A stretch of DNA of 64,000 bases from an uncultured Planctomycetota bacterium (GCA_963849325.1 CAWKHF010000011.1:67762-131761); one strand, 5' to 3'; positions 9,071 through 25,116 are shown, numbered from the stretch's first letter. The notes: generated by a model from the letters alone, not told the origin. Numbers and translations are program-made.

Positions 9071-9151
9071 TGAGCTGCACCCTACCGATCGCGCCGGTAG
9101 TAACGATTCGCCGGCCGGGTTCGAGAACGATGGACACGCGAACCGTGAGAT

Positions 9152-10438
9152 TCAGACCCGTGCCTCCAGGACCATTTCGATCGGGGTCGATGGCTGAACC
9201 GCCGTGGCGCCCTGAGGTAATAGCTGCATCAGTTCGCGGTGCCAGCCGTCCATGACGCGGCTTCGGGAGAAGTGCTCCTGGTAAACGCGCTGACAGTGGC
9301 GTTGCATTTCCGCGAGGGTCTCGGGGGTCGAGGCCACGGAGCGCAGCTGCGCGACGACCTCGCCTTGAGTTTGGGAGTCCAGAACCCAGCCGACCCCATA
9401 TTCCTCGATCCAGCGGGCGATGGCGGCGTCGCGCGGGCCGGCGAAGAGCACCGGCCGACCCGCCGCCAGCGCCCGAAAAACTTGGAGGGCACGACCATCC
9501 CCGACCACTCCGGACGCAGGCTCACCAGGTGAATGTCCGCCGCGGCCAGCCGTTTGCCGAGCATGGACTCGGGCGCGAAGCCCGCCAGACTAATGTTCGT
9601 GTCGTCGGCCCGCAGGGCCGCACGCAACTCCTCGGCCCGATTGCCGCGGACACCGAAGCAGAAGTGGACTCCGTCGCCGCGCAGCCGCCGGGCCAGTTCC
9701 AGAAAATCGTTGAAAGAATGGGCCCGCCCGAAGTTGCCCGAGTACAGCAGTCCCAGAGGCCGATCGCCGAACAACTCGCGGCGAATCGCCGGGTCGGGCC
9801 GATCCAAATGGTCCGGCTCGACCAAGGCCCAAGGAACCAGCGTCACTTTGCGGGCGGCATGGTGGTACGATTCCAGCCGGCGACGCATACAGACTGCCCA
9901 GATCGGCGATCAAATCGCAGGAACCGTAAGCGGCCCGTAGCAGAGGGCGAAGAGCACGGGCCAACCAGCCGCCGGAGGTCATCAGCCCCTCGGCGATGGC
10001 GATCTCCGGGTACAGGTCGAAGCACCAGTGAGCCAGGCGGATGCGCGGACGAAGCTTCCGCAGTACCAGGGCGACCAGCACACTCAGCACCGGGTCGGTG
10101 CCGATGAGCACGACGTCGGGAGCCTTGCGGCGGCTGCGCAGGGCCAGGCGGCACCAGGACGTCAGCATCCACAGGGCGTTCAGCACCCGCCCCACCCCGG
10201 AAGCCTGACGAAGCCGCGGCCTCCAGACCCTGCGAATGGTCAACCCTTTCCAGTCTTCGCGCAGGGGGTAGGAGACGGAATCGTCGCGGCAGCCCCGATT
10301 GCAGGGCAGGGCCTCCACCTGCCAGCCCCGCTCCTGTAAGGCCTCGCAGAACTGCGTCAGGTGCCGGGCGGAAACAACGTCGTCGGGGTGAAAGTAGTGA
10401 TAGAGAACCGCAATCTTCGGCCGACCGTTTGGTCCCAT
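9152..10438 (-). CDS. glycosyltransferase family 4 (WcaI/WbuB-like), two frameshifts (about 9890 and 9475)
   Basis: Three overlapping minus ORFs (9590..10573, 9229..9888, 9152..9508) join as MGPNGRPKIAVLYHYFHPDDVVSARHL.. / ..LGLLYSGNFGRAHSFNDFLELA.. / ..ALAAGRPVLFAGPRDAAIARWIEEYGVGW... ATG at 10438-10436. Confidence 0.75.
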
Positions 10439-10475
10439 TGGTCCCTCGCTCGCGCCCTTGCAACGATGTTCCCGA

Positions 10476-11499
10476 TCAACCCACAAGGCACGATTTCCGC
10501 GCGGCCACCTGGTCGTAAATCCAGGCGTAGGTCTGCTCCAGCCCGTCGCGCGAGGCGCGTCGCCGGCGCCCAAGTCAGCAACGCCTTAATCCGCGTGTTG
10601 TCGCTGTTGCGGCCGTTGACCCCTTTGGGGGCACTGAGGTTGTAACGGCGCTTCAGCTTGAATGCCGGCGATGTCCTCGACCAGATCGACCAGCTGGTTG
10701 ATGGTCACCAGTTCGTCGCTGCCGAGGTTGATCGGTTCGGCGATGTCGCTGTGCGGGATCGTCCTGCGTGCCCTTGATGCAGTCTTCGATGTACATGAAG
10801 CTACGGGTCTGCTGTCCGTCGCCCCAGATCTCGATGTCGCGGCGGCCGGATAACTTCGCCTCGGCCACTTTCCGGCAAATCGCGGCCGGCGCCTTCTCGC
10901 GGCCGCCCTCCCAGGTGCCGTGCGGGCCGTAGACGTTGTGGTAGCGCGCGATGCGGGTGATCACACCAAAATCCTCGCGGAAGTGGCGGCACATGCGCTC
11001 GCTGAACAGCTTTTCCCAGCCGTAGCCGTCCTCGGGCATGGCGGGGTAGGCGTCCTCTTCCCTCAGGGGGACCACCTGGGGAGACGTTTGTTTGTCCGCG
11101 GCGTACACGCAGGCCGACGAGGCGTAGAAGAAGCGGCGCACCTCCTGTCGTCGGGCGGCCATCAGCAGGTGCGTGTTGATGAGGACCGAGAGCATACATC
11201 GGGCCTTGTTGTTTTCGATGAACCCCATGCCGCCCATGTCGGCCGCAAGGTTGTAAACCTCCTCGGCTCCTTGCAAGGCCGCCTCGCAGTCGTCCGCTTC
11301 CTGAAGATCCAACTGCCGGTTGTCTACTTCGGGGAAGAGTTGCCACCACTCTTCCAGGGGCTTGCAGTCCACGGCGCGGATAGGCCGAGGATCTCGGCAA
11401 GAGAGCGGCAACCAGGTGACCGCCGATGAACCCGCCCGCACCTGTCACGACAACCACGTTGTTCTTCTTCACGAGTTTTTCTCCCGCGAACTGGGCCAA
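10476..11499 (-). CDS. NAD-dependent sugar epimerase, GDP-mannose 3,5-epimerase-like; at least 4 frameshifts
   Basis: VVVTGAGGFIGGHLV (Rossmann) at the N-terminus. A long block follows: NLAADMGGMGFIENNKARCM..RRFFYASSACVY..EDGYGWEKLFSE..RYHNVYGPHGTWEGGREKAPAAICRK..IWGDGQQTRSF.YIEDC. It matches plant and bacterial GME nearly motif for motif. By hand translation the C-terminus (PINLGSDELVTINQLVDLVEDIAGIKLKRRYNLSAPKGVNGRNSDNTRIKALL.W.P...LRDGLEQTYAWIYDQV) is recovered only by switching frame near 11400, 10757, 10660 and 10555. Confidence 0.8.
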
Positions 11500-11526
11500 T
11501 CGAATCGACGCAAGTAGGTAATCCGT

Positions 11527-11621
11527 TTAGAGGCACTAACCGAATGTGGCGGCACGTTTGTAACGTGCCGTACAATCCAACACGTTGAAAACGTGTTGCC
11601 ACATTTTGTTAGAGCCTCTTA
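11527..11621. repeat. 95-nt nested-hairpin element, copy B (inverted relative to 4644..4738)
   Basis: The reverse complement is identical to copy A except for 1-2 positions (GGTTAGTGCC vs GGTTCGTGCC). It lies in the gap between the WecA-like gene and the epimerase gene. Confidence 0.85.
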
Positions 11622-11644
11622 CGCACGGGCCAGACCGCAACGGG

Positions 11645-13189
11645 TTACGCCTGGACGCGGACACCCTCGTTGCCCTTCACCGGACAGGTGATGGCGGGCA
11701 ACGCGGCGCGGTCTTGCCGTGCTTCGGCGTTGCTGGCCCCCTCCTCTTTGGGGACAAAGGCTTCGCTGGCCTTGGTGAAATCATCGATGATCGCCGCCAG
11801 GGCGGCCACCTTGCCCCACAGCGGCTCGGAGTCGGGATAGCCGGAAACCAGGAGATGACCAATGATCCGACCTCCCATCTCCAGGGGGATTTCGACCCGC
11901 CAGAGGACGTCTTCGACCTCTTCCTCGAAGCGGTCCCACTGGGCATGATACTCCTCGTGCAGCTGCGGAACACTGACGTCCAGCTGAGCCGTCTGCAGAT
12001 TCAAGTCGAAGGCGCGGACGGCCACCGCGTCCAGCAGCGACTTCCAGTTTCGCGTACCGTGCAGATGCACGTCCGAGCGCTGGAACTGCCCCTCGCCCCG
12101 GCGTTGGAGAAGGGTCAGGAGGAGGCGTCTCAGTCGTGTCTTGACCAGGAGGAACTCCGCGTGCCCGAAGAGCCGGGTGGCGATCAGGATGGCCGCCACC
12201 ATCAGGGCGGTGCCCACGGCGATGAATTCGTTCCGCAGCTGGAGGCTGACGAAGACCCCGGCCACGAGAAGCAAGCACAACGCGGAGGTGACCAGCAACA
12301 CGAGATGGGGATGGGACAGGCGGCGGAGCAGGCAATGATGCAGATGGCCTCGGTCGGTGGTGTAGATGCTTCGTCCGGTCAACTTGCGGCGCAGGATGGC
12401 TGCGGTCGTGTCGAAGATCGGTAGGGCCAGCAGGACTAGCGGTGTTACCAACGCGATTGTGGTGGGGGTCTTGAGTGAACTGTGAATGGCCAGGACGCCC
12501 ACCATCAAGCCGATGAGCATACTCCCCGAGTCTCCCAGGAAGATGCTCGCGGGCGGGAAGTTGAAGCACAGGAAGGCGAGGACGGCGCCGGCCATGGCGA
12601 AGGCCATACAGGCGGTGACGTCTCGACCGGCCACCCACGCCATCACGCCCAGGGCCAGGAAGACGATGAAGGCGATGCTGCTTAAGAGGCCGTCCATGCC
12701 GTCGATGAGGTTGAGCGAGTTGATGGCTCCCAGGAGGATAAAGGCGGTGAAGGGCACCGACACCACCCCCAGCTCGAACTCCCCACCCAGCAGATGGACG
12801 GTGCGGACCTGGACGCCGGAGGTGATAACGATGGTAACGGCGGCGATTTGGCCCATGAGCTTGTGCCGCCCCCGCAGCTGGCCGAAGTCGTCGGCCACTC
12901 CCACGGCACAGATCATCAGGCAGGCCATCAGAAGGCCCACCGGGCGCGGCAACTGGGTCCACACTTGTTCCTGCCAGGGTCCGTCCTGCTGTAACGCCAC
13001 CAGGAAGGCAATGCCGGCGGCGAGGAGGATGGCGGGTCCGCCGGCGACGGGGATGGAGCGGCTGTGCAGCTTGCGCCGTCCGTCCGGCTGATCGACCAGC
13101 CGCAAGGGGTGGGCGAGGGCGCGAACCGCAGGCGTCAGCAGCAGGCAGAGAAGGAAGCTGAGAGCAGCAGCGATCAACATCTCAACCAT
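11645..13189 (-). CDS. WecA/WbpL-like polyprenyl-phosphate HexNAc-1-phosphate transferase (MraY/GT4 PNPT family) with about 180-aa C-terminal cytoplasmic extension
   Basis: Within ORF 11645..13402 the likely start is MVEMLIAAALSF (ATG 13189). PNPT hallmarks are RKLHSRSIPVAGG, VGVADDFGQLRGRHKL, AINSLNLIDGMDGL and FLGDSGSMLIG. Confidence 0.8.
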   Translation of the reverse strand: MVEMLIAAALSFLLCLLLTPAVRALAHPLRLVDQPDGRRKLHSRSIPVAGGPAILLAAGIAFLVALQQDGPWQEQVWTQLPRPVGLLMACLMICAVGVADDFGQLRGRHKLMGQIAAVTIVITSGVQVRTVHLLGGEFELGVVSVPFTAFILLGAINSLNLIDGMDGLLSSIAFIVFLALGVMAWVAGRDVTACMAFAMAGAVLAFLCFNFPPASIFLGDSGSMLIGLMVGVLAIHSSLKTPTTIALVTPLVLLALPIFDTTAAILRRKLTGRSIYTTDRGHLHHCLLRRLSHPHLVLLVTSALCLLLVAGVFVSLQLRNEFIAVGTALMVAAILIATRLFGHAEFLLVKTRLRRLLLTLLQRRGEGQFQRSDVHLHGTRNWKSLLDAVAVRAFDLNLQTAQLDVSVPQLHEEYHAQWDRFEEEVEDVLWRVEIPLEMGGRIIGHLLVSGYPDSEPLWGKVAALAAIIDDFTKASEAFVPKEEGASNAEARQDRAALPAITCPVKGNEGVRVQA

Positions 13190-13486
13190 CCTCGTCCGGA
13201 GAGGGGGAAAGTTGAAGGCGGCGGCATGGCGACAACGCCAGCGACATCGTGTTGGCCGACTTCTCCGGTCAAGCGGCGAGCTCGGCGCACACTCCGTGCC
13301 CGTGGGTTGCGAAAACAACCCTTGCCCGCGAAGGACAAAACGACCACCCGACTCCACGCGAACGCGGAGACAATGGTCGCCGTTCTCCCAATCGGAGAAC
13401 ATCTTAATGGTTAGTAGGGGCCGTCCAACAAAAAGTTCCGAGTTTCACCGTGTCGCGGCGAAACGTAGTTATTGTCGGACAAACCT

Positions 13487-14075
13487 TTACACGCCGGCAG
13501 CGTGCATGGGCCGGTCGCCCAAAGGCTGTAGCATCCAGCCCTCGACCTCGATGGAGGCGCCTCGCTGGATGAAGTTCACCTCAATCACAAAACGCATGTG
13601 TCTGTCACGGCGGATATTTTTTCCCTGGAGTCCAGCGAGAGGTCCAGCGGTCATCACCGCCGACATGCCCGGCTGGAGGCGTTCTCCAGGAGCCACCGGG
13701 GGCGCCGCACTCCATCAGACGGTGAATCCTCGCAAGGTCCATCCGCAGCTGATTCCCGTCGGGAACGGGGCGCATGCGGACCACTTGCTTGGTCTGGAGG
13801 GCTGCCAGGCGGGCGGCTTCATGGCCCCCAGAAAGACGCATCCAGGGAACAGAGGTCCGTGCGCGGCCAGCGGCCGTCCACGGTTCTGCCATTGTTTTTT
13901 GTACAAGGGTAAGGAAGAAGTCGTGACGTAAGTCCAGCAGCTTGCGGGCGAGGGCCTTTTCCGCTCGGGGACGGGAGTGAAGAACCCACCAAGTGCCGGC
14001 CTCCTCGGAACCCCGATCCGGGGTAGCCAGGAGATCGGCAGGGTACACGAACGGTTCCAATGGCAAAAGGGGCAT
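13487..14075 (-). CDS. NusG-paralog transcription antiterminator (RfaH/UpxY/LoaP-like), about 3 frameshifts
   Basis: The NGN domain is WWVLHSRPRAEKALARKLLDLRHDFFLP (ORF 13605..14171), then LYKKQWQNRGRPLAAHGPLFPGCVFL (ORF 13715..13906). The KOW-like C-terminus is PGMSAVMTAGPLAGLQGKNIRRDRHMRFVIEVNFIQRGASIEVEGWMLQPL (ORF 13487..13696). It is the first gene of the glycan operon. The start could alternatively be 14171. Confidence 0.65.
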
Positions 14076-14707
14076 AGGATGGAAGCCTTGGATCCATAGA
14101 CCCCGGGTCCATCCTGGTGACGGGATCGCCTTCTTCTCCCCCTGCGTCCGGGCGGGGAACGCCATCGACAATCGCGAACCTCTCGCGGTCAGTCACGACA
14201 GGGCATCTCGGCTCCGATCGACCATCTAGAAGGCGCAATCGGCGCACATCATCCGCGACAGAAGGAAGTCCCTCCTGCCTTCCATTTCGTTGGAATACCC
14301 TTGCCCGTCAATGACCTTGGTTGGGCAAATGGAACGGTTGCAAAGGACAGGCATAACGTAGCAAGGGAAGGGAGAGGATGTCAAGGATAAAATCGCCTGG
14401 AGGGGTTTTCGGTTTTCGGGGTTTTCGGAACCTTACGTCGAATGCACGGAATTGACAGAGAGTACGGATCGGTGTACCATGCAGCTTCTGAGTTTCCGAA
14501 AAGGCGACCGTGGCGGATCCGGATCGGTTCCGTATCGTTGCTCCCGATGATTCCGTCGTGTTCGCGGATACGCTGCGCCTAGCGTCAGCAGGATCGACAC
14601 AGGATTTGGAGCGTCCGCGAACGGCGCCTTGGCGATGCGCGGGATAAGTTATCTCAAGCCGGATATGCACGTCCGTACAGAACAAGCCTTCGGGAGCGTG
14701 GGGAAAC

Positions 14708-15883
14708 GTGTTATCTAACCCGGTCATCCAGGTCTTACGGGACCACCGCTTTTGGCGCGGGCCGGCCCCCCAGGTGATCCTGCTACTGGCGGTGGCGAAC
14801 GTCGCGGTGCTACATTGGAAAAACAGCATGGCGGAGGAGAGACGTGCGAACCTCACCACGGGGGACGTAAAAGCGTTCGACCGGACAAATCGCTACGATT
14901 ATACGTTCGGCGATGATCTCCTCGCCAGTTGGAACACCATTCCCGACGCTACCAAGTGCCCGCTGGTGGTTGTGTGCGGCATGTCGCAAATGTTTACAAT
15001 CAACGAACCCAAACCGGGCGACCAGCGAATATCGGAGGAACTGGATGATCGGCTGTCACCCCGGGGGGTACGGGTTTATGGCCTTGCTGCTCCCAATCTG
15101 TGTAACGAGGAAGCCCTGTTTCTGCTCCTCGCCTTGCTCGAACAACCACGGACTACGCCGAGGAGCTTTATCTTTGGAGCGTGTTTCGACAAGTTTCGCA
15201 ACATTGATCTCCGGCCCGGCTACGGGAGGTTCCTCCAAGCCAAGCCTGGTTTAGCCGAGTTGTGGAAACGAACAGCGGAAGTACACCGCGAGAAATATCC
15301 TCTAGCCGCCGATAAAATGCTCAGAACACTCCACGATCTTCACGGCGGAGAGGAGGATCGCGACCGGTCAACAAACGGTGTCTGCGAAAACGAGTTACGC
15401 AACTTCGTCAGCGCCGGTCTTCCCGTCGTCGCGGAGCGCAAACAGATGAATGGCTTTCTTCAAAATCGGTTGTTCCTGCTCCGCAACAGTTTACTGGGCA
15501 TCAAGCCCACGTCCAAGCGGCCGATTATCCAAAGCCGCTACGATATGAACCGGGAATTTCTCGAGCTGATGATTGATGTAAGTGAACGAGCCGGCGTGCG
15601 TTTCATTACCTACGTCTGTCCACTGAACCCGCTCGCGGAAAATCCGTACGTCGCGCACGAATACGCAGAATTTAAGACCTGGCTCGAAGGCTTGGCAGCC
15701 GAGCGCCGCGTTCCGTTTACGAACCTGGAAGGTCTTGTGCCGCATGAGGAGTGGGGAACATTCTTGGGCGGTCCTGACTTCAAGCATTTCAAAGGTGCGG
15801 GCCACCGGTTGGTCGCGGCGAAACTGGAGGAAGAATTCGGCCCGCTATTGACGGAATCGGCGGAGTCGGAGGTAGGGCCGTGA
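14708..15883 (+). CDS. membrane-anchored SGNH/DltD-like protein
   Basis: 391-aa ORF (GTG start) with an N-terminal TM (QVILLLAVANVAVLHW). It has a Ser-motif candidate VVVCGMSQMF and a C-terminal D-x-x-H (GGPDFKHFKGAGHRL), as in SGNH/DltD/AlgJ-type proteins. Its stop overlaps the MBOAT start (GTGA). Confidence 0.5.
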   Translation: MLSNPVIQVLRDHRFWRGPAPQVILLLAVANVAVLHWKNSMAEERRANLTTGDVKAFDRTNRYDYTFGDDLLASWNTIPDATKCPLVVVCGMSQMFTINEPKPGDQRISEELDDRLSPRGVRVYGLAAPNLCNEEALFLLLALLEQPRTTPRSFIFGACFDKFRNIDLRPGYGRFLQAKPGLAELWKRTAEVHREKYPLAADKMLRTLHDLHGGEEDRDRSTNGVCENELRNFVSAGLPVVAERKQMNGFLQNRLFLLRNSLLGIKPTSKRPIIQSRYDMNREFLELMIDVSERAGVRFITYVCPLNPLAENPYVAHEYAEFKTWLEGLAAERRVPFTNLEGLVPHEEWGTFLGGPDFKHFKGAGHRLVAAKLEEEFGPLLTESAESEVGP

Positions 15884-17311
15884 TCTTTACCAGCTACACG
15901 TACATCGCTTTCCTGCTCGCCGTCTTCTTATTGCACTGGTCCGTTCCCGTATCCTGGCGCAAGCCGCTGTTGATCGTCGCTAGTTATATCTTCTATTGCT
16001 CCTGGCGCTGGGAGTTCGGCTTTTTACTTTTAGGTGTCAGTTTCTTCAACTGGTCCTATGGTCGGTGGGTACTGCCGCGTTGGCCGTCTCTGTCGATGCT
16101 CTTGCTCGGTGTGGCTGCAAACCTTACGCCGCTTGTCTATTACAAGTATAGCAGTTTCCTGATCCAGAATGCCGCCATCATGACGCACTGGTTCGGCTCG
16201 GATTGGGTTCCGCCGGCCATGAGCATCTTGCTGCCGCTTGGCATTTCCTTTTTCTCCTTTCAAGGCATCGCTTACCTCGTGGACGTGGCCACGGGCGAGG
16301 AACCGCTGCAACGCCTGTCGGATTTCTTGCTGTTCAAGTCGTTTTGGTCGCAGCTGATCGCCGGACCAATCATCCGTCTTCATGAGATGCGTCAGCAGCT
16401 CGAAACGCCGCGTGAACTCGATTACGAGGACTTGGCCATCGGCTGCGAGCGAATCCTGTTTGGGTTTTTCAAAAAAATCGTGCTTGCGGACAACCTCGCT
16501 CCCATCGTGGACCTGGTGTTTTTATCCAAAGGGAATGCCAATGCTCTGGATACCGTAGTCGGCATTCTCGGGTTCGGCATGCAGATCTATTTCGACTTTA
16601 GCGCGTACTCCGACATCGCGATTGGCTCCGCACGCCTATTCGGCTACCGGTTTCCCGAAAACTTCAACTGGCCTTACGCCGCCCACAGCCCGCGCGAATT
16701 CTGGAATCGCTGGCACATGACGCTGTCGAGCTGGATTCGCGATTATGTCTTCACGCCTTTAACGTTTCTTTCTCGTAACCGGCCGGCGCTGGGGATGATG
16801 TGGCTGATCGTGGCGATGGCCCTGTGCGGCTTGTGGCACGGCGCCCAGTGGACGTTCGTGGTCTGGGGCATCTGGCACGGCGTCCTCCTGGTTGCCAACC
16901 AAATCGTTCTCCGAGGCGTTTCTCCCCGACCGGCGGGAGATCGCGGCAATCGGTTCCCACGGGCACCTGCTGGCTGGACCGTTGACCTTCGTACTTGCCA
17001 ATGTGGGCTGGGTGTTCTTCCGCGCCGGGTCGCTGCAACAAAGCTGGTCCATGTTGACCAGCCTCTTCACGCTGCGCGGCGGCATCCGGCCGGCACTTGT
17101 CCGGGAAAACAGTGTCCTGTTTGTGGGAGCGGTCTTCGTCGCCATGATGGTCGCGCAATCCATGCACCCGGCCTGGACCCGCTGGACGCAGCGAGTGGAC
17201 GTCGGACTCCGCGTGGGGGCGACGCTCCGCGCGGTTGTTTACGCGTTCGTCATTTTGAGCGTCATTGTTTTGGATCAAGAGGCCAAGACCTTCGTTTACT
17301 TCCAGTTCTGA
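15880..17311 (+). CDS. MBOAT-family membrane O-acyltransferase (AlgI/DltB-like), one frameshift near 16900
   Basis: The first about 345 aa of ORF 15880..19047 carry AlgI/DltB motifs (FSFQGIAYLVDV, WHMTLSSWIRDYVFTPL, GLWHGAQWTFVVWGIWHG). The genuine C-terminus (..AGPLTFVLANVGWVFFRAGSLQQSW..YFQF*) is in ORF 16892..17311. Confidence 0.8.
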
Positions 17312-17319
17312 GCGTGCTC

Positions 17320-19047
17320 ATGCGGAGTTCGGCAGTGCATTCTTCGTCGGGGGAGCGGCTCGGCGATCGCTGGCGGCATCACGCCACCGTCTCTCCGCAG
17401 GCTGTGGCCGTAACCCACTGGGTCGCCGGTGCCGAGCCCGTGCGCTGGACGTGGGGAGATCTCCTGCGCGGCGCCGACAACGTGGCCGGCTGGCTCGCCG
17501 CGCACGGAGTTCGTCCAGGCCAGGTCTGTGCCCTGATGGTGCGTCACCATCCCTGGTTTTATCCGGTGTACCTGGGAATCAGTTTGAGCGGGGCATTACC
17601 TGCTGTCCTGGCCTATCCCAATGCGCGTACACACCCAGAGAAACTCCGCCAGGGGTTGGAGGGAATGGCTCGTCGCTCGGGGTTGGACTGGGTGCTCACC
17701 GAGCGCGAACTGGAGCCGATGGTTCGCGACCTCATGTTGAGGGAAGGGAGCACTCTGGAGGGACTGCTGTTCCCGCTGGAGTCCGACGTCGCGGCCCCAA
17801 CGAGATTCTACCCGCCCGTGACGCCGACAACTCCGGCCGATAGTCCCTGCCTGCTTCAGCATTCCTCCGGCACCACAGGTTTGCAAAAGGCCGTGATGCT
17901 GTCCCACCGGGCCGTACTGGGGCATCTCGATCGCTATCGCCGCGCCATTGGGCTGACGGCGGACGATAAGATCGTGAGTTGGCTGCCGCCCTATCATGAC
18001 ATGGGACTCATTGCGGCGTTCCATCTGCCGCTGGCCTGTGGCATCCCCCTGATCCAACTCGATCCGTTCGAATGGGTGCAGGCGCCCGTCCTGTTTCTGG
18101 AAGCCGCGGCACGCGACGGCGCGACGCTGGCCTGGCTGCCGAACTTCGCCTATCATCTCATGGCCGAACGCATCCATGAGGAAGATCTGGAGGGACTCCG
18201 GTTTGACCGAATGCGCCTGCTGATCAACTGTAGCGAGCCGGTTCGCGCCGAGGCCCACGAAAAGTTCCTTCAACGCTTTGGTCCCTACGGCTTCCGCGCG
18301 GAAGCGCTGGCGGCTTGCTATGCCATGGCCGAAACTACCTTCGCGGTGACGCAAACGATTCCAGGCCGGCCCCCTTCCCAGCTCACGGTTGATCGGGACG
18401 AGTTGGCACGCGGACAAGTGCGGCTCATCCCGCCGGGTCCGCCAAGCCGGGTATGCGTCTCCTCCGGCGTCCCCATCGCCGACTGTGCCGTGCGCCTGGT
18501 CAATGAGCGGGGCGAGGACTTGCCGGACGATCGGGTCGGGGAGTTGGTCATCCACTCGGCATCGATGTTCGATGGCTATCGCAATTATGCGGAGAAGACA
18601 GCGGAAGTGCTCCAGGACGGCTGGTACTCCAGTGGCGATTATGGCTTCCGGCACCGGGGCGAGTGCTATGTTATCGGCCGGAAAAAGGACTTGATTATCG
18701 TCGCCGGCAAAAACATTTACCCGGAGGACATCGAAGACGCTGCCAATGGAGTATTCGGTGTCCTTCCCGGACGTGTGGTGGCTTTCGGAGTGGACGATCC
18801 GGAACTGGGGACCGAACAGGTGGCGGTAGTTTTGGAGTCCGAGCATCACGGCAGTCCCAAAGCCACGCAAGTGCGCCAGCAAGTCGTTCAGGCTGGCATG
18901 GATATCGGAGTAACCATTAGCGAAGTCTATATCGTGCCGCCGCGCTGGCTAATTAAGAGTTCCGCCGGCAAACCGAGCCGTGGGGCGAATCGTGAACGCG
19001 TGCTGAACGAATTGAGGGTCCAGAGGCGAGGGAAAGGCGATGATTAG
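17320..19047 (+). CDS. fatty-acyl-AMP ligase-like adenylating enzyme (ANL superfamily)
   Basis: ATG at 17320, in the same frame as the long 15880 ORF. Motifs are LLQHSSGTTGLQKAVMLSH, WLPPYHDMGLI (FAAL-typical), YSSGDYGF, GRKKDLIIVAGKNIYPEDIE and KSSAGKPSR. Confidence 0.8.
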   Translation: MRSSAVHSSSGERLGDRWRHHATVSPQAVAVTHWVAGAEPVRWTWGDLLRGADNVAGWLAAHGVRPGQVCALMVRHHPWFYPVYLGISLSGALPAVLAYPNARTHPEKLRQGLEGMARRSGLDWVLTERELEPMVRDLMLREGSTLEGLLFPLESDVAAPTRFYPPVTPTTPADSPCLLQHSSGTTGLQKAVMLSHRAVLGHLDRYRRAIGLTADDKIVSWLPPYHDMGLIAAFHLPLACGIPLIQLDPFEWVQAPVLFLEAAARDGATLAWLPNFAYHLMAERIHEEDLEGLRFDRMRLLINCSEPVRAEAHEKFLQRFGPYGFRAEALAACYAMAETTFAVTQTIPGRPPSQLTVDRDELARGQVRLIPPGPPSRVCVSSGVPIADCAVRLVNERGEDLPDDRVGELVIHSASMFDGYRNYAEKTAEVLQDGWYSSGDYGFRHRGECYVIGRKKDLIIVAGKNIYPEDIEDAANGVFGVLPGRVVAFGVDDPELGTEQVAVVLESEHHGSPKATQVRQQVVQAGMDIGVTISEVYIVPPRWLIKSSAGKPSRGANRERVLNELRVQRRGKGDD

Positions 19048-19276
19048 CGACCGGCTCAAAGGGGTCATCCTGCGCGAGCTGCAACTGGATGACTTTCCCT
19101 TCACGGACCAGACGCTCGCCCCCAATGTCCCCGGTTGGGATTCGCTGAGCCACGTGCGGATTCTCGCGGCGATCGAGAAAGAGTTCGCCATTCGGTTCAA
19201 GACGCTAGAGGTGTTGCGACTGAAGAATGTCGGCGAACTTCAAGCGCTCGTGAGTAAAAAGACCGCGGCTGGCTAG
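19040..19276 (+). CDS. acyl/peptidyl carrier protein
   Basis: 78-aa ORF overlapping the ligase stop by 8 nt. The phosphopantetheine site motif is GWDSLSHVRILAAIEKEF. Confidence 0.75.
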   Translation: MISDRLKGVILRELQLDDFPFTDQTLAPNVPGWDSLSHVRILAAIEKEFAIRFKTLEVLRLKNVGELQALVSKKTAAG

Positions 19277-19295
19277 CTGTTTCGTTTGCGACCCA

Positions 19296-19520
19296 TCAGC
19301 GGACAGGCGTCACCACGATCGATTTGATCTCGATGTCGCCGTCCGCCGACCACACGCGCACCGGCGAGTGAGCAAAGGAGATCGGGCCGTAGTCGGAGAT
19401 GCCAATGATGACGGGGTTACGATGAGTCACCCAGACCGTGAACGTCTCCCGCGTCAGCTGGACGCGGAGTTCCTGCAAGCCGGGAACTTGCCGCGTATCA
19501 CCGAAGACAGTCCACAGAGC
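19296..19520 (-). pseudogene. possible C-terminal fragment of a secreted lectin/DUF1080-like gene
   Basis: Only the last about 75 aa of ORF 19296..19616 look protein-like (..LRVQLTRETFTVWVTHRNPVIIGISDYGPISFAHSPVRVWSADGDIEIKSIVVTPV). There is no credible N-terminus, and it abuts the TnpB remnant. Confidence 0.2.
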
Positions 19521-19606
19521 GCCTCGTTCATCCGGGTCCGAGCGGCCAGCGGAAAGGCCGTAACAAGAACTTCCGCAAAGCGATCTCGCCGTGGACCTAT
19601 CGCCTG

Positions 19607-19765
19607 GTGCGGACACGGATCGATCCGAAGGCGCAGGAGGACCGTGTTCGTCCTGTGAGCTACGATCCCCGAAACACCAGCCGAGAGTGTCCCGCCTGGG
19701 GAACGGTGAGGAAGGACAACCGAAAGGGAGAGCGCTTTTGCTGCCAGTCCTGCGGCACGCAGAGC
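19607..19765 (+). mobile_element. remnant of an IS200/IS605-family tnpB (OrfB Zn-ribbon region only)
   Basis: ..KAQEDRVRPVSYDPRNTSRECPAWGTVRKDNRKGERFCCQSCGTQ.. matches the TnpB C-terminal pattern (YKA...G..V..VdPr.TSq.Cp.CG......R....F.C..CG). No upstream RuvC-I/II or wedge domains are present, and the downstream part is cut off by a hairpin repeat. Confidence 0.5.
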
Positions 19766-19820
19766 ACGAATCACACGAATAAAAAGATGCAAGTTTTGTA
19801 TTTTATTCGTGTGATTCGTG
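19765..19820. repeat. perfect 20-bp-stem hairpin, CACGAATCACACGAATAAAA family
   Basis: CACGAATCACACGAATAAAA-16 nt-TTTTATTCGTGTGATTCGTG. The same arms recur at 38055-38082 and 38233-38271. It sits 14 nt from the PP2C stop codon, so it probably acts as a terminator. Confidence 0.8.
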
Positions 19821-19833
19821 GTGAATCGGGGAT

Positions 19834-20565
19834 CTACGAGAAGGCCACGACGACGCAGGTGACGTTGTCGTTGGAGCCGCGTTCGAGGGCCAACGTCACC
19901 AGTTCGTTGGCCCACTCCTGCGGGTCGGGATAGCGGGCCGCGCCCGTGCGCAGGTCGTCGGGATTGATGTAATTGGTCAAGCCGTCGCTGGCCAGCACGA
20001 GACGATCGCCAGCGTGCGGCGTGAAAGGGCGTACCTCGGCTGATTCCGGCAGGTCGGCACAGCCGAGAAATCTGTAGAGAATGTGGCGATACGGACTTTG
20101 CCGGGCTTGCTCGGGCGTCAGCGCTCCGTTGCGAGCCAACTCTTCGGCCATGGAATGATCGAGGGTGAGCTGTTCGACGTGCTCGCCGCGGATGAGGTAG
20201 GCCCGGCTATCGCCAAGTCCGGCCACGTAAATTCGATCGTCCTGGCGCACGGCCAGAACGGCGGTCGTGCCCATGCGGCGGCCGGCGGCCTGGTGACGGC
20301 TGGCGTCCAGGATGGCCCGATTGGCTTCTCGGAACGCCTCGGTCACGGCCTGGGCGGGGTCGGCGTGGGCATCCAGGCGGACCTGCACCGCGCGCGGAAT
20401 GATCTCCGCCGCCAACCCGCTCGCCCGTTCGCCGGACTCCTGCCCTCCCATACCGTCGGCGACGAGGAACACGTTCCGGCTCGTGTCGGCCACGTAGCGG
20501 TCTTCGTTATTGGGACGCAGGCCGCGGGCCGTGCGGGCGCCTGCGCGTACTTCCAGGGGATCCAT
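19834..20565 (-). CDS. PP2C-family Ser/Thr protein phosphatase
   Basis: Within ORF 19834..20763 the likely start is MDPLEVRAG (ATG 20565). Motifs are RPNNEDRY, FLVADGMGGQESGERAS, ASDGL and GSNDNVTCVVV. Confidence 0.85.
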   Translation of the reverse strand: MDPLEVRAGARTARGLRPNNEDRYVADTSRNVFLVADGMGGQESGERASGLAAEIIPRAVQVRLDAHADPAQAVTEAFREANRAILDASRHQAAGRRMGTTAVLAVRQDDRIYVAGLGDSRAYLIRGEHVEQLTLDHSMAEELARNGALTPEQARQSPYRHILYRFLGCADLPESAEVRPFTPHAGDRLVLASDGLTNYINPDDLRTGAARYPDPQEWANELVTLALERGSNDNVTCVVVAFS

Positions 20566-20819
20566 ACTCGGCTCCAGTGGAAGAGGGGAGTATTGGCATC
20601 GCGAGCACGCCCAATCTCTTCCTCTTCCTCTCATTGTAACCGCCGCTTTCCACGGGCGACAAGCGTAGACATCGGCAAGGACACGGCCCGCACCAGGCCG
20701 GGGCGAGAGGGGAATTGGCATAATCCGCACCCCTCGCAAAATCCGCAGCCGCCGCACCACCATGCCGTTTGCTACAACAGAGGGTGGGTCGGTGGGGGAT
20801 TGGCTGTGAGGATCGGCAC

Positions 20820-21526
20820 ATGGGTTTGTTGAGCCAGCGTCGCCGTCGTCCGGAAATCATGGACCAGCCGGATCTGGCCCCGGACCAGCACGTCCGCGCC
20901 CTGCAAGCCCTGGCCCGCATCAACTTCCTCAGTCACAGTGCCGGCATTCTCTGGCCGGATCTCGCCGCGTTGGCCCATGCCGTCGCGCCGCGCGCCCGCG
21001 CATCCTCGACGTGGCGACAGGAGCGGGCGATGTGCCGCTTCGCCTGTGGCGGCGGGCGCGGCGGGCCGGACTCGACTTCCATGTCGAAGGCTGTGACATC
21101 AGCCCCGTCGCTCTCGAACACGCACGCGCTCGGGCCGCTCGGGCCGGTGCGCCCCTCCGCTTCTTCGAGTACGACGCCGTGTCCGGGCCGACCCTGACGG
21201 GCTATGACGCCCTCACGTGCTCGCTCTTCTTGCACCATCTGGACGAAGCGCCGGCCATCGCGCTGCTGCGGCACATGGGCGAAATGGCGGGGCGACTGGT
21301 GCTGGTCAACGATCTCGAGCGCAGCGGGATCGGCCTGTTGCTGGCGCACGTGGTTGGGCGCCTGCTGACAACCTCGCACGTCGTTCACGTGGACGGCCCG
21401 CGTTCGGTGGAGGGAGCGTTCACGCGCACCGAGGCTCGCGCCCTCGCCGAACGCGCCGGCCTGGCCGGCGCACGGGTCGGCTGGCGTTGGCCGTTCCGCT
21501 GGTTGCTGTCGTGGAGGCGCCCGTGA
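20820..21526 (+). CDS. class I SAM-dependent methyltransferase, one frameshift near 21000
   Basis: ORF 20769..21197 (MGLLSQRRRRPEIMDQPDL..VRALQALARIN) continues in ORF 21011..21526 (..ILDVATGAGDVPLRL.., CSLFLHHLDE). Its stop overlaps the next gene's GTG (GTGA). Confidence 0.65.
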
Positions 21527-22782
21527 CCATCGCGGCCACCACGAGCCTGGAAGAAGCCGCCTCGCGTACCTGGGATGTCGTGATCGTCGGTGCTGGGCCG
21601 GCCGGAGCGATGTCTGCCTACGAGCTGTCTCGCCGCGGATTGGCCGTCCTCCTGGTCGATCGCGCCTCCTTCCCGCGCTGGAAGGTGTGCGGCTGCTGCT
21701 TGAATGCCCGCGCCCTGGCCGCGCTGGCGGAGGCCGGACTCGGCGCGCTGACCGTTCGCTGCGGCGCGGTGTCTCTGGATAGCTTTCAGGTGGCGGTGGC
21801 CGGCCGGGTCGCCCGGCTGGCGATCGGCGGTGCTGTGTCGCTGTCGCGCCAGACCCTCGACGCCGCCCTGGTGACAGCCGCCATCGGAGCGGGCGCCGCC
21901 TTCCTGCCGCGAACACAAGCAGTTCTGAGTTCTGAGTCCCGAGTTCGGAGTGAAGAACACAGCATGACCCCAGCGTCCGGAACTCCGAACTCCGAACTCC
22001 GAACTCCGAACTCCGGAGTTCGCGTCGTGGAGCTGCGACAGGAGCAGAAGGCCAGTCGGATGGCGGCGCGGGTCGTGCTCCTCGCGGACGGGCTGGGCGG
22101 CAAATTGGTCGCTCGGGCCGGAATCAGTGAGGTCGCCACGGCACCGGGCGCACGCATCGGCGTGGGCATGATCGCGGCGAACGCGCCGGCATTCTACGAG
22201 CCGGGCCGCATCTTCATGGCCTGCGGCCGCGAGGGCTATCTGGGACTGGTACGCCTCGAAGACGGACGGCTCGATCTGGCCGCCGCGCTCGATCCAGGAT
22301 GGGTTCGCGCCCACGGCGGACCCGGCCCTGCCGCCGCCGAGATGCTCGCCGAGGTGGGTTGGCCTGCCGTCCCCGACATGGCGGAACACGGCTGGCGAGG
22401 CACTCCGGCGCTGACACGACGGGCGCGGCGCGTGGCCGGTGAGCGCCTGTTTCTCGTCGGCGATGCCGCCGGTTACATCGAGCCGTTCACCGGCGAGGGC
22501 ATGGCCTGGGCGCTGTCCGCCGCAAGGGCGCTGGCGCCTCTGGCCGCGCGGGCGGCCGAGCGCTGGCATCCGCGATGGGCCGGCGAGTGGGGCGCGCTCT
22601 ATCGCCGCCTTCTCGGGACACGGCATCTCGTCTGCCGAACCGTCGCCGCCGTGCTCCGCTCGCCGGGCCTGACGCGGACGATGATCCACTTGCTTTCCGT
22701 TGCCCCTGGCCTGGCCGTGCCGGTGCTGCACGGTTTAGGATTTCATGACAGTCGAAAGCAGGGAATAGGGAATAGGGAATAG
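21523..22782 (+). CDS. FAD-dependent oxidoreductase (geranylgeranyl-reductase/halogenase-like fold) carrying a 35-codon repeat insertion
   Basis: In the frame of ORF 21217..22782. The dinucleotide-binding site is DVVIVGAGPAGAMSAYELSRRGLAVLLVD, followed by RLFLVGDAAGYIEPFTGEGMAWA. The last 6 codons (GIGNRE) lie in the (GGGAATA)n array. Confidence 0.75.
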   Translation: MTIAATTSLEEAASRTWDVVIVGAGPAGAMSAYELSRRGLAVLLVDRASFPRWKVCGCCLNARALAALAEAGLGALTVRCGAVSLDSFQVAVAGRVARLAIGGAVSLSRQTLDAALVTAAIGAGAAFLPRTQAVLSSESRVRSEEHSMTPASGTPNSELRTPNSGVRVVELRQEQKASRMAARVVLLADGLGGKLVARAGISEVATAPGARIGVGMIAANAPAFYEPGRIFMACGREGYLGLVRLEDGRLDLAAALDPGWVRAHGGPGPAAAEMLAEVGWPAVPDMAEHGWRGTPALTRRARRVAGERLFLVGDAAGYIEPFTGEGMAWALSAARALAPLAARAAERWHPRWAGEWGALYRRLLGTRHLVCRTVAAVLRSPGLTRTMIHLLSVAPGLAVPVLHGLGFHDSRKQGIGNRE

Positions 22783-22850
22783 GGAATAGGGAATAGGGGG
22801 AAAGAGGAAGGAATCTCGCATCTATTCCCTATTCCCTATTCCCTATTCCC
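22761..22850. terminator. heptamer-array inverted repeat between convergent genes: (GGGAATA)5 .. (TATTCCC)4
   Basis: 22761-22795 is GGGAATA x5 and 22823-22850 is TATTCCC x4, with a 27-nt spacer. Both arms overlap the 3' ends of the two convergent CDSs. Confidence 0.7.
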
Positions 22851-23659
22851 TGATTCAGCACTTGCCGTACCGCTTCGATGAGCTGATCTCCAGTGTACGG
22901 CTTGCTCAGGAAGCTCCAGCCGGGCGTCCACGCCACCCACGACGGCTCCGGCAAGCCGCCGGCGGTCACCAGCAGAACGCGCACCTGCGGATTCATCGCC
23001 AACAGTCCGTTGATGGTCTCCACGCCCGAGATGTCCGGCAAATGCTGGTCGAGGATGACCAGATCGATGGCCGACTGGTTCTGACGGTAAAGCTGCAGGA
23101 TCTGCCGGCCGGCCTCCGCCGACAGCACCTGGTAGCCGTGCTGCCGCAGGATGGTCTGGGCAAGGAGGCGGATACTCGGCTCCCGGTCGGCCAGCAGGAC
23201 CATCCCACGCGGCGAGGCTGGGGACGGGGCGGGCGTCGCGGCCGCGGCGGCCGGTTTCGTCCACGCTCGAACTTCCAGCTCGCGGAAAAGGCACAGCACG
23301 CCCCGTACCACGCCTTCGCCGTCCCGCACCGGCGCCTTGAGCAGACGCACGCGCAGGGCCAGCGGGCCGCGCGGCCGATCCTCTTCCGCCTCGATCCGTT
23401 CGCCGCGCAGAACGCGCTCGTTCTCGGCGGCGGCCTGGTCCGACCAGGGCGACGGCCAAAAGTCGAAAACCGTGTGTCCCAGGAGTTCGGAGTCCGGCTT
23501 GTCCAGCCAGCGGCAGAAGGCCGCGTTGACCGCGATGCAATGACCCTCCCCGTCGAACAGATAGACACACTGGTCGAGGTTCTCGATCAGCGCGCGGAAG
23601 GCCGCCGCTCCGCCGGAGCGGAGTTCCGCGAATTCCAGTTGACTCAACGGATCGGTCAT
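22829..23659 (-). CDS. PAS-domain / response-regulator receiver (REC) protein
   Basis: The N-terminal part is PAS-like (..CVYLFDGEGHCIAVNAAFCRWLDKPDSELLGHTVFDFWP..). The C-terminal REC is MVLLADREPSIRLLAQTILRQHGYQVLSAEAG..IDLVILDQHLPDISG..LVTAGG..FLSKPY. Confidence 0.75.
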   Translation of the reverse strand: MTDPLSQLEFAELRSGGAAAFRALIENLDQCVYLFDGEGHCIAVNAAFCRWLDKPDSELLGHTVFDFWPSPWSDQAAAENERVLRGERIEAEEDRPRGPLALRVRLLKAPVRDGEGVVRGVLCLFRELEVRAWTKPAAAAATPAPSPASPRGMVLLADREPSIRLLAQTILRQHGYQVLSAEAGRQILQLYRQNQSAIDLVILDQHLPDISGVETINGLLAMNPQVRVLLVTAGGLPEPSWVAWTPGWSFLSKPYTGDQLIEAVRQVLNQGIGNRE

Positions 23660-23692
23660 ATCTTCTTATCCCCCCTGTCCTCTGTTCCACGG

Positions 23693-23738
23693 GCCGCTTG
23701 CGGCTTGGCGGACAGCGTTGAGCGCCAAACCGCAAGCG
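23693..23738. terminator. 17-bp-stem hairpin downstream of 23756..24079
   Basis: CCGCTTGCGGCTTGGCG-12 nt-CGCCAAACCGCAAGCGG (1 mismatch). A related GCTTGCGGCTT/AGGCTGCAAGC palindrome occurs at about 46733-46772. Confidence 0.4.
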
Positions 23739-23755
23739 GCGTTCGCAACGAACCC

Positions 23756-24079
23756 TCAGCGACCCACGACCGTTTCGTGGGTCGCCGCCCGGCCCTGATC
23801 GGCCTGGACTTGCAACATTTGCGAGCATAGCAGCCGCGCCATGCGCGGCGCCGCCCATTCCGGTTTCACGACCTGTCCGGGCGGCGACGCTAACGCCACC
23901 GCCGGCAGGTTTCGCTCCACCCAGTGACGGAGCAGCGGTTGGCCGCGTCCGGTCCGCAGCACACAGCGGATCATCGGCACCAACAACTCCTCCATCTCCT
24001 CCCGGCTCGACACGGAACCGCCGTCAGACCCGTACATCCGTCGAGCCAACGTCTGGACCGCCTCGTCGGTGAAATCCAT
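23756..24079 (-). CDS. hypothetical protein (107 aa)
   Basis: The ORF is 11 nt downstream of the 24091 gene on the same strand. I recognise no motif. Confidence 0.35.
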   Translation of the reverse strand: MDFTDEAVQTLARRMYGSDGGSVSSREEMEELLVPMIRCVLRTGRGQPLLRHWVERNLPAVALASPPGQVVKPEWAAPRMARLLCSQMLQVQADQGRAATHETVVGR

Positions 24080-24090
24080 GATGTTTCTCC

Positions 24091-24720
24091 CTAAACCGGC
24101 ACACTCGTCTCAGCGACATCCGAGGTATCGCCCCACCAATCGACCGCCTGGGCCGTGGCGATACCGCCGTTGCCGCTGCTGACATTGGCGAGAACGCAGA
24201 AGGTGCCATCGGGGTTAACGTTGACCTGCACATTGTTCAGCGCCGGGATACCGCCGAGGTTGACGACCTCCCCTTGCATGGGAGCGCCACTGACGCTGCC
24301 GGTGAACTCCCACGTATTGCCGTCCTCGCAAGTCGCGTTGAAATCACTGATCGCCGGTGTCCCGTTCACCAAGGTGGCCGAGGCCGAGGATCTCCCGTCC
24401 GCACTGGCGGCAGTCAGCTGGCCGAGTTGCAACGCTGTCAGGGTGATGTTGTAGCCGCCCTGGGAGTCGGTTGTCACGGAGCCGTTCACTGCCCCGCCGA
24501 AATTGATTGTCTCGTTGCCAATAGGGTTCCCGGCCTTGGTCAATTGTCCCGTGAGGGTGACTTGCTGGTTCGGGTCGTAGGTGACGGCCAGAGTCAAAAC
24601 CTCCGCGGGGGGACCGAACGTCGGACAGATTCGATCCTCCAGGCTTTCCAGGAATGGCGTCACCGAGCGGGCGGTAACGGGTTTCCGGGAGCGGGCAGAG
24701 CGTGTCCGCAGACAAAACAT
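24091..24720 (-). CDS. secreted hypothetical protein with LExLEDRxxP N-terminal motif and beta-rich (Ig-like) body
   Basis: MFCLRTRSARSRKPVTARSVTPFLESLEDRICPT.., followed by a Thr/Gly/Asn-rich beta-strand-like sequence. It shares the N-terminal motif with 56740..59103. Confidence 0.5.
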   Translation of the reverse strand: MFCLRTRSARSRKPVTARSVTPFLESLEDRICPTFGPPAEVLTLAVTYDPNQQVTLTGQLTKAGNPIGNETINFGGAVNGSVTTDSQGGYNITLTALQLGQLTAASADGRSSASATLVNGTPAISDFNATCEDGNTWEFTGSVSGAPMQGEVVNLGGIPALNNVQVNVNPDGTFCVLANVSSGNGGIATAQAVDWWGDTSDVAETSVPV

Positions 24721-24836
24721 GCTGTACCTCCTTAAAGGACACAGGCGAGTGGTGAGAACGCCATCGTTTGAGGCGCTGACTCTCTGGTGGATTCAGGTGG
24801 GCTGGCAAGCTAGGAGGGTGTCCGGGATTCCCTTCG

Positions 24837-24893
24837 TTTCGCGGCGGTTCGCAGAGGCGCGCATTGAGCGCGCCTCTGCGAACCGCCGCGAAA
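24837..24893. terminator. perfect 26-bp-stem hairpin
   Basis: TTTCGCGGCGGTTCGCAGAGGCGCGC-ATTGA-GCGCGCCTCTGCGAACCGCCGCGAAA. It lies between the kinase stop (25117) and the start of 24091..24720. Confidence 0.45.
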
Positions 24894-25116
24894 TCGAATG
24901 TTTACCGAGGCGAACCCGAGGAAGAAGGAAGGGGCGTCAGAGGGAAGGATCGTGCGGTCCCCTATATATACATCGAAATCGGCGCGAAATCGGACAAGAA
25001 TTCCGGACGTTTTTTCAAGATTTTTTCAAAACCTTGTGAGTAAACCACTTAGAAAGAAAAATTTTTGATGCACGAGAGGCAAAAAATGAGAAAAAAGGAC
25101 GATGGGAAGTATACGT

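Follow-up and report, generated by a model that had tools for sequence, protein, structure and literature searches.

Can a carrier-protein-borne acyl group be passed through a membrane-bound O-acyltransferase (MBOAT) to a bacterial surface glycan outside the Dlt systems? The question is raised by a 64,000-nt stretch of DNA from an uncultured Planctomycetota bacterium (GCA_963849325.1, CAWKHF010000011.1:67762-131761; hereafter 'the window', with positions counted from its first letter), in which positions 14708-19276 of the + strand hold four tightly packed coding regions, for an SGNH protein, an MBOAT, an adenylating ligase and a small carrier protein. A first-pass annotation, made from the sequence alone, had read them as a Dlt-like acylation cassette built around an enzyme of the fatty-acyl-AMP ligase (FAAL) type. 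We establish here the identity and family placement of these proteins, their catalytic residues and motifs, their synteny and their glycan context. The cassette is a real, widespread and uncharacterised variant of a known mechanism, whose chemistry we infer, and its four genes probably make up a single module for esterifying an extracytoplasmic glycan with a carrier-borne acyl group, a reading we favour with some reserve.

In the relay that we propose, the FAAL-type ligase would adenylate a carboxylic acid, which is most likely a fatty acid of medium or long chain length, and the acyl group would be loaded onto the phosphopantetheine arm that Ser35 of the neighbouring acyl carrier protein (ACP) carries, not onto coenzyme A (CoA). 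The acyl-ACP would dock at the cytoplasmic face of the AlgI/DltB-family MBOAT, whose His320 would catalyse passage of the acyl moiety through the membrane to the tyrosine in the protein's own FVYFQF motif. From there, the helix-anchored SGNH protein would accept it on Ser93 (triad Ser93/Asp357/His360) and pass it to a hydroxyl of a polysaccharide, which would be the product of the neighbouring glycan genes. We infer every one of these transfer steps, as well as the identity of both acyl group and acceptor: the fatty substrate is suggested by the placement of the ligase among FAALs and is the weakest step, and the glycan is proposed as acceptor from its gene context.

The four genes are closely joined. 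The TGA stop of the SGNH gene (ending at 15883) overlaps the GTG start of the MBOAT gene at 15880 as GTGA; the MBOAT stop (17309-17311) is followed by an 8-nt gap and the ligase ATG at 17320, with an alternative in-frame GTG start at 17314; and the ligase stop (19045-19047) and the carrier ATG (19040) overlap by 8 nt. Genes, coordinates and junctions are as the first-pass annotation had given them, except that the MBOAT gene, taken there as intact, is frameshifted at 16957-16966. Pfam matches in the cassette are to MBOAT, AMP-binding and PP-binding.

The adenylating enzyme, which had been called FAAL-type from its LPPYHDMGLI motif (nt 17983-18012), is indeed best matched by FAALs in NCBIfam, among PDB sequences and in Foldseek. 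It contains SWLPPYHDMGLI, and its A10 lysine is located in SSAGKPSR. The best NCBIfam model is PRK07768 (named long-chain-fatty-acid--CoA ligase), followed by the FAAL models PRK09192, MbtM, FadD32 and FadD21; these top models match end to end, all under cut-off. Because the cut-offs of the curated FAAL models are not reached (NF006624, score 293.6 against 600; NF005850, 324 against 572; NF004509, 203 against 775), the ligase is, as judged from sequence, a distinct FAAL subfamily. Its environmental homologues are ~60% identical and carry generic automatic names only.

Among PDB sequences the best match is the Legionella FAAL (LpFAAL, 3kxw; E 3e-58), with further matches to the Synechococcus olefin-synthase FAAL domain (7r7e/f/g), EcFAAL (3pbk) and FadD32/FadD23. 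FAALs span E values of 3e-58 to 1e-40, and CoA ligases follow at 1e-23 or worse. For the AlphaFold model of the ligase (pLDDT, the predicted local distance difference test, 82.1), the top 29 Foldseek matches are all FAALs, with template modelling (TM) scores of 0.72-0.85, many of them solved with C12-C20 acyl adenylates; past them come an adenylation domain of a nonribosomal peptide synthetase (NRPS) that selects keto acids (6ulx), McyG and then CoA ligases (from E 1e-36). CoA ligases are thus found only below FAALs in both sequence and fold, and the enzyme does not cluster with the ordinary CoA synthetases. A DltA/AlmE-type amino-acid ligase is ruled out by the NCBIfam, PDB sequence and fold matches: no DltA structure occurs among the best 60 PDB sequence matches or the top 50 fold matches, no DltA model occurs among the best 25 NCBIfam matches, and with the amino-acid adenylation model the enzyme reaches only 110 bits, the cut-off being 317.

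The ligase also carries an insertion of ~22 residues at aa ~355-380 (nt 18382-18459), directly past motif A5, as delimited by BLASTP against an acetate-CoA-ligase-like (Acs-like) enzyme from a related locus described below. The segment aligns to LpFAAL, the olefin-synthase FAAL and EcFAAL with gaps of at most one or two residues. It stands where the FAAL-specific insertion (FSI) is reported to lie (Arora 2009). The FSI is discussed in PMC8460268. Two further positions may bear on the acyl chain. Ile242 (nt 18043-18045) aligns with the position mutated in the A229I structure of the olefin-synthase FAAL, which holds palmitoyl adenylate in place of stearoyl adenylate, and Ala335 (nt 18322-18324), at least 90% conserved, stands at the glycine of the YGxAE pocket motif. 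Both residues may limit acyl chain length.

The small carrier with a DSL serine noted at first pass proves to be a PP-binding domain protein (Pfam), with the predicted phosphopantetheine attachment site Ser35 in GWDSLSH (nt 19136-19153). GWDS[LM]xH is invariant in all 18 cassette ACPs that were aligned, and the ACPs of variant cassettes retain GWDS[LF]SH. Against NCBIfam the carrier finds weak generic ACP models only and is not a DltC equivalog. Its best PDB match is 2LML, a 'putative acyl carrier protein' (E 8e-11), with which it has WDSLSH and a C-terminal LKNVGDL in common. A structurally characterised GmACP3 family of Geobacter metallireducens, defined by a WDSLxH/N motif and with a proposed role in lipopolysaccharide biosynthesis, was reportedly described by Ramelot et al. 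2011, and 2LML presumably belongs to it.

Once repaired, the MBOAT is 476 aa long. Its N-terminal part matches Pfam MBOAT (2e-22), its only solved sequence relatives are DltB structures (6bug, 8jem; E 1e-35), and the NCBIfam DltB model TIGR04091 gives 162 bits against a cut-off of 375. His320 (nt 16837-16839) aligns with the catalytic His336 of DltB, and WNRWH (His279) is also present. Compared with DltB, the protein has ~70 extra C-terminal residues with transmembrane-like segments, which end in FVYFQF (nt 17291-17308; tyrosine codon 17297-17299). F[VI]Y[FQ]QF followed directly by the stop ends every MBOAT homologue that could be read to its stop (17 genome-contig loci). In six frames of the window, F.Y..F before a stop occurs at the MBOAT C-terminus only, and a six-frame search of the window found no separate DltX-like microprotein.

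In PatA, experiments have shown the tyrosine of such an FXYXXF motif to be auto-acylated and the acyl group to be passed on to the SGNH partner, whereas in Dlt the motif is on the separate microprotein DltX (PMC12148441). Because FXYXXF is fused to the cassette MBOAT, its predicted architecture is AlgI/PatA-like rather than DltB-like; its relatives carry the automatic annotation 'AlgI'. The AlgI/DltB-like assignment of the first-pass annotation accordingly stands for the DltB homology and the catalytic histidine and needs correction for the architecture, the fused motif having been overlooked.

The SGNH protein has one N-terminal transmembrane segment (aa 17-37). Ser93 lies in GMSQM (nt 14984-14986), and DFKH (nt 15776-15787) holds Asp357 and His360; these three residues, as well as Gly125 of block II and Asn130 of block III, are invariant in 24 SGNH homologues. 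Pfam Lipase_GDSL_2 is matched by 21 of the 24 family members. The window protein itself has no significant Pfam match and no Pfam or NCBIfam DltD match, and a profile of the family found no meaningful match in the PDB. Its AlphaFold2 model (pLDDT 85.9) has the SGNH fold, and the best full-length Foldseek matches are DltD structures (6pfx, 3bma, 7dxm, 6o93), at modest TM scores of 0.39-0.43 and 11-14% identity; PatB is also among the fold matches. The SGNH protein with catalytic Ser and His that had been called from the sequence is therefore upheld by an invariant triad and by the modelled fold.

The four genes recur together far from Planctomycetota. A pattern scan derived from the SGNH alignment, run over 185,579 species genomes, returned 20 loci from Zixibacteria, Verrucomicrobiota, Planctomycetota (Tepidisphaeraceae), Omnitrophota, Acidobacteriota, Myxococcota, Gemmatimonadota, Pseudomonadota and Geomesophilobacter, and every named relative comes from a diderm phylum. 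The order SGNH-MBOAT-FAAL-ACP is found at 14 of the 15 genome loci with enough downstream sequence. The two closest relatives, L022 (75% SGNH identity) and L025 (63%), have the same four genes in the same order, and in these two as in the window the cassette junctions overlap or are shorter than 25 nt. A metagenome survey added 70 loci, of which 29 are informative and 21 of these carry the complete cassette. The co-occurrence of the four genes is thus wide, the full order being present at ~35 loci in at least eight phyla and always in glycan clusters. Recurrence of the same gene order across phyla places the arrangement far beyond chance.

Flanking genes across the loci include GT4 transferases, a carbamoyltransferase, FkbM methyltransferases, epimerases, sulfotransferases and WecA- or Bac_transf-type initiators; those of L022 and L025 encode GT4 and GT2 transferases, sugar-nucleotide enzymes, a carbamoyltransferase, sulfotransferases, methyltransferases and AT3. 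A NodU/CmcH-type carbamoyltransferase (Carbam_trans_N/C) recurs beside the cassette in many phyla (L002, L006, L007, L008, L010, L025, L065, L073), as do FkbM methyltransferases and sulfotransferases in the flanks. Because these three recur, the gene content suggests that the acceptor glycan would be heavily decorated. Only such glycan-decorating genes recur: no conserved fifth gene (phosphopantetheinyl transferase, thioesterase or fatty-acid-modifying enzyme) was found beside the cassette, and no other acyltransferase or acyl-ACP consumer is conserved there.

Incomplete and altered cassettes are informative about which parts belong together. In five metagenome loci (L065:7096-10586, L071, L076, L078 and L083), SGNH, MBOAT and ACP are followed by a carbamoyltransferase and the ligase slot is empty; the ACP motif in the L065-type variant is GWDSFSH. 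In L073:8595-10477 (contig Ga0247842_10001888), an Acs-like enzyme stands in the FAAL slot, followed by a WDSLSH ACP; this ligase scores 679.6 bits against the acetate-CoA-ligase equivalog PRK04319, whose cut-off is 729. The locus hints at a carrier-protein-dependent acetylation variant and at an exchangeable ligase slot. Since the ACP is kept when the ligase is absent or replaced, it would be the constant partner of the MBOAT/SGNH pair, with the ligase being exchangeable. Together with the fixed order, the tight junctions and the fact that no further consumer of acyl-ACP is conserved there, this ties the ACP to the MBOAT/SGNH pair.

On a broader scale, the SGNH orthologous group comprises ~34 clusters at 50% identity (E ≤ 1e-30) within a wider family of ~430 clusters. 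Sampled members of the wider family (~30% identity) also have an MBOAT as the next gene, and the two of these MBOATs that could be read to the end both finish in FIYF[NQ]F. The picture that emerges from these comparisons would be a broad glycan-cluster SGNH/MBOAT class, one clade of which has recruited an ACP and usually a FAAL. Two related loci are degenerate: in L021:6251-7648, SGNH aa 9-278 abuts the last ~110 FAAL residues and the MBOAT is deleted, and in L048:6760-8115 the FAAL match is in two pieces with ~60 residues missing.

Several observations weigh against the proposed relay. The fused FXYXXF is an architecture known from MBOATs that use acyl-CoA, such as PatA. At L008 (7971-12460), from Geomesophilobacter sediminis, the only cultured organism found in the survey, the SGNH protein (45% identical) and the MBOAT (56% identical, ending in FVYFQF) are followed by a carbamoyltransferase, and no FAAL or ACP lies within 8 kb. 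FAAL and ACP are likewise absent from the fetched flanks of the distant SGNH-MBOAT pairs L026, L028 and L030, of which only L028 has appreciable downstream sequence. Given these loci, the SGNH/MBOAT pair can work without a dedicated carrier. Furthermore, FAAL-fold enzymes may select non-fatty acids (keto acids for 6ulx, phenylpropanoids for McyG), and the glycine of the YGxAE pocket motif is alanine in the window ligase. Lastly, the MBOAT as sequenced would miss its last helices and the shuttle tyrosine. As separate observations, L008 has a second MBOAT, 36% identical, 6.5 kb upstream, and none of the small open reading frames (ORFs) beside the distant relatives is a carrier.

Part of this evidence would fit two unrelated functions that travel together, in which the MBOAT/SGNH pair is an acetyl-CoA-dependent O-acetyltransferase of the PatA/PatB or AlgI/AlgJ kind and the FAAL and ACP feed another reaction, such as one that yields a lipid anchor or an N-acyl sugar. 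The acyl-CoA-type motif fusion and the four loci without FAAL and ACP are what such a split would lead one to expect, and MBOAT/SGNH pathways other than Dlt have been described as lacking a carrier protein (PMC12148441, 2025). Set against this are the fixed order and tight junctions in ~35 loci of at least eight phyla, the position of the ACP directly past the MBOAT even where the ligase is missing or replaced, and the absence of a conserved alternative acyl-ACP-using transferase with the cassette. We consider two separate functions quite improbable.

The relay could also run as proposed with a different cargo, placing a short-chain, hydroxy-, keto- or amino-acid ester on the glycan. The keto-acid domain 6ulx and McyG are the structural neighbours past the true FAALs, the alanine at the pocket glycine is highly conserved, an Acs-like ligase takes the same slot in L073, and PMC12148441 establishes no acyl groups other than acetyl and D-alanyl for MBOAT/SGNH systems of bacteria. 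However, the top 29 structural matches and all best sequence matches are FAALs that activate fatty acids, the ligase has no amino-acid-type signature (see the adenylation model score above), and ACPs of the WDSLxH (GmACP3-like) family have a large hydrophobic cavity. A non-fatty acyl group is therefore an unlikely alternative, though one that we keep in view beside the fatty-acyl relay.

The state of the MBOAT gene raises a different concern, namely whether the cassette is functional in this organism at all. The first ~360 residues of the protein are in frame 1 (15880 to ~16956) and the last ~115 in frame 2 (~16967-17311), so that the catalytic core and FVYFQF lie in different frames of the window through a frameshift. 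Mapping the intact MBOAT of L022, the closest relative, with tblastn places its aa 1-359 at 15880-16956 in frame 1 (86% identity) and its aa 364-477 at 16967-17308 in frame 2 (69% identity). Between them, 10 nt are present where 12 are expected from L022, a difference that amounts to a deletion of 2 nt or an insertion of 1 nt; the sequence context is CCACGGGCAC. The periodicity of GC content at third codon positions (GC3) moves from frame 1 to frame 2 near 16900-16950. The frame-2 part contains GWVFFRAG and three transmembrane-like segments. Because frame 1 stays open past the break (118 stop-free codons) and into the ligase, ORF calling yields one chimeric 1055-aa ORF (15880-19047) in which the MBOAT runs into the ligase. 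A protein database search gave no separate 575-aa entry for the window ligase, which fits a source annotation carrying the fusion.

A natural MBOAT-ligase fusion or a programmed frameshift is ruled out: in ~55 related loci where the MBOAT spans the break point it is in a single frame, with the sole exception of L096, a short partial contig that is truncated at its end, and GC3 follows frame 2 after 16950. Since the relatives are single-frame, the shift is a lesion or an error and not a programmed event. The read-through peptide encoded by frame 1 past the break has no matches.

Whether the shift is a lesion in the organism or an error of the assembly matters for the proposed module. A genuine pseudogene, with a real frameshift at 16957-16966 and a decaying glycan island, would be in keeping with the further frameshifts that this island shows in two GT4 genes, an epimerase gene and a membrane protein gene, with the lower GC content of the island (0.57-0.60 against 0.64-0.70 elsewhere) and with the related locus L021, clearly a deletion remnant. 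Yet both halves of the MBOAT are highly conserved and free of internal stops, and a single change of 1 or 2 nt gives the full protein: removing any one base in 16950-16974 restores the 476 aa. Furthermore, at least six other frameshifts strike unrelated genes of the window, making seven or more per 64 kb with that of the MBOAT, and both halves of each broken gene are well conserved, which makes an indel-prone assembly the likelier cause. One of them splits an Hsp70-family gene 20 kb away (one ORF covers profile positions 102-377, an overlapping ORF 403-590); as this gene lies outside the glycan island, the indel problem appears to be general in the assembly. We therefore doubt that the cassette is a pseudogene. 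The break is most probably an assembly indel, and for this reason the four-gene module is probably intact in the organism. An exact look-up with the ACP returned only a 1.2-kb contig that covers the 3' end of the ligase gene and the ACP, with no independent near-identical copy, and a protein search with the C-terminal 183 aa of the MBOAT found no match above 59% identity.

How does the proposed module relate to known systems? It resembles Dlt in combining an adenylating enzyme and a dedicated carrier with an MBOAT that would act onto an FXYXXF tyrosine and an anchored SGNH protein with a Ser/His/Asp triad. It differs in that the ligase is FAAL-type and not DltA, in that the MBOAT itself carries the shuttle motif, on additional helices, in place of a separate DltX, and in that no NCBIfam or Pfam Dlt model reaches its cut-off for the cassette proteins. 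The gene order, given in Dlt letters, is D-B-A-C, the hosts are diderm, and the surroundings are glycan clusters, not teichoic acid genes. Of the features that define Dlt membership, a carrier with its serine beside the ligase is present; a DltA-type ligase, a DltB equivalog and a separate DltX are not.

With PatA/PatB, AlgI/AlgJ/AlgX and WssH/WssI the cassette shares an MBOAT of ~476 aa with its own C-terminal FXYXXF, a separate extracytoplasmic SGNH partner and, as proposed, a polysaccharide target. The catalytic histidine, the fused motif and the adjacent SGNH partner of the PatA/PatB type are all present. Those are acetyl-CoA systems without ligase or carrier, whereas the cassette has a constant WDSLxH ACP and usually a FAAL, and a further six metagenome loci have the ACP alone or with an Acs-like ligase. 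FAAL-ACP systems such as FadD32-Pks13, the Legionella and E. coli FAALs and the olefin-synthase loading domain share the fold, the FAAL motifs, the insertion and the adjacent carrier, but are described as standing in polyketide synthase (PKS) or NRPS contexts, whereas the partner here would be an MBOAT in a glycan cluster. Eukaryotic HHAT, PORCN and GOAT transfer acyl groups of medium or long chain length to acceptors in the lumen or outside the cytoplasm, as the cassette would if its substrate is fatty. These enzymes use acyl-CoA and acylate proteins directly, without an SGNH partner or a tyrosine shuttle.

Extending the proposal beyond the window, we suggest, tentatively and as a possibility that may well prove too broad, a widespread diderm pathway that lipidates surface polysaccharides, in which a FAAL would charge a WDSLxH ACP that serves an AlgI-like MBOAT with built-in tyrosine and a DltD-like SGNH protein, the ligase setting the acyl group. 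MBOAT/SGNH pairs are general bacterial machinery for acylating cell-envelope polymers, and only two donor types are known, acetyl-CoA (PatA, AlgI, WssH) and D-alanyl-DltC; the module would break that split. If this holds, it would be the first MBOAT/SGNH system besides Dlt to depend on a carrier protein, and its MBOAT the first in bacteria shown to move long-chain acyl groups, and it would offer a natural test of whether a tyrosine shuttle can carry bulky acyl groups. The predicted product is a glycan modification of a new class, probably fatty acyl groups in ester linkage, which would alter hydrophobicity, surface attachment, recognition by phages or the immune system, and the emulsifying properties of exopolysaccharides or O-antigens. 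FAAL biology would likewise gain a context outside PKS/NRPS, bacterial FAALs having been described as always in PKS or NRPS contexts (PMC8460268). We found no description of a FAAL/ACP/MBOAT/SGNH cassette in the literature that was searched, although an earlier mention may exist. The words MBOAT and SGNH are absent from the FAAL surveys that were checked, and carrier proteins go unmentioned in a 2010 Biology Direct paper.

Table 1. Features of the cassette and its surroundings in the 64,000-nt window.
Feature	Position (nt)	Strand	Evidence
SGNH-fold putative acyltransferase (DltD-like), 391 aa	14708-15883	+	alignment, AlphaFold2 model, Foldseek
MBOAT, N-terminal ~360 residues, frame 1	15880-16956	+	Pfam, NCBIfam, PDB DltB matches
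Frameshift site inside MBOAT gene	16957-16966	+	tblastn, DNA alignments, three-frame translation, GC3 phase
MBOAT, C-terminal ~115 residues including stop, frame 2	16967-17311	+	homologue C-termini, six-frame motif scan
FAAL-type adenylating enzyme, 575 aa	17320-19047	+	Pfam, NCBIfam, PDB sequence matches, Foldseek
Dedicated acyl carrier protein, 78 aa	19040-19276	+	Pfam PP-binding, WDSLxH alignment
Divergent glycan-biosynthesis genes	1049-13402	-	Pfam, homologue mapping
WecA-like Glycos_transf_4 phosphoglycosyl transferase	11645-13402	-	Pfam
Frameshifted membrane protein	1986-3399	-	homologue mapping
Frameshifted GT4 gene	4780-5908	-	split Pfam domains
Second GT4 gene, two frameshifts	9229-10573	-	homologue mapping
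Frameshifted NAD-epimerase	10653-11499	-	split Pfam domains
Frameshifted Hsp70-family gene, 20 kb from glycan island	36298-38063	-	split profile match

Upstream of the cassette, the divergent genes encode an AT3 acyltransferase, GT4s, FkbM-type and other methyltransferases, an NAD-epimerase and the WecA-like enzyme (Table 1), and they likely make the acceptor polymer. The first-pass annotation had placed the cassette head-to-head with a glycan operon. The minus-strand genes are indeed glycan genes, but this orientation is found only in the window: in the relatives the cassette is co-directional within the glycan operon. The GC content of 0.57-0.60 sets off the glycan and cassette region (1-10000 and 14000-20000) from the rest of the window, as would fit a surface-polysaccharide island subject to horizontal exchange.

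Between the WecA-like gene and the cassette lie 1.3 kb (13403-14707) that contain no ORF recognised by Pfam, have no homologue in the related loci and match nothing in Rfam; a promoter-like site at 14452-14480 within this stretch is not above background. Scans for regulatory RNAs, tRNAs and promoters likewise gave nothing above background. Downstream of the cassette, 19834-27502 and 39558-44022 are rich in signalling genes, with a PP2C phosphatase, a PAS-response regulator, a Ser/Thr kinase with TPR repeats and large TPR proteins, and an intact RecQ helicase gene lies at 32101-33906 on the minus strand.

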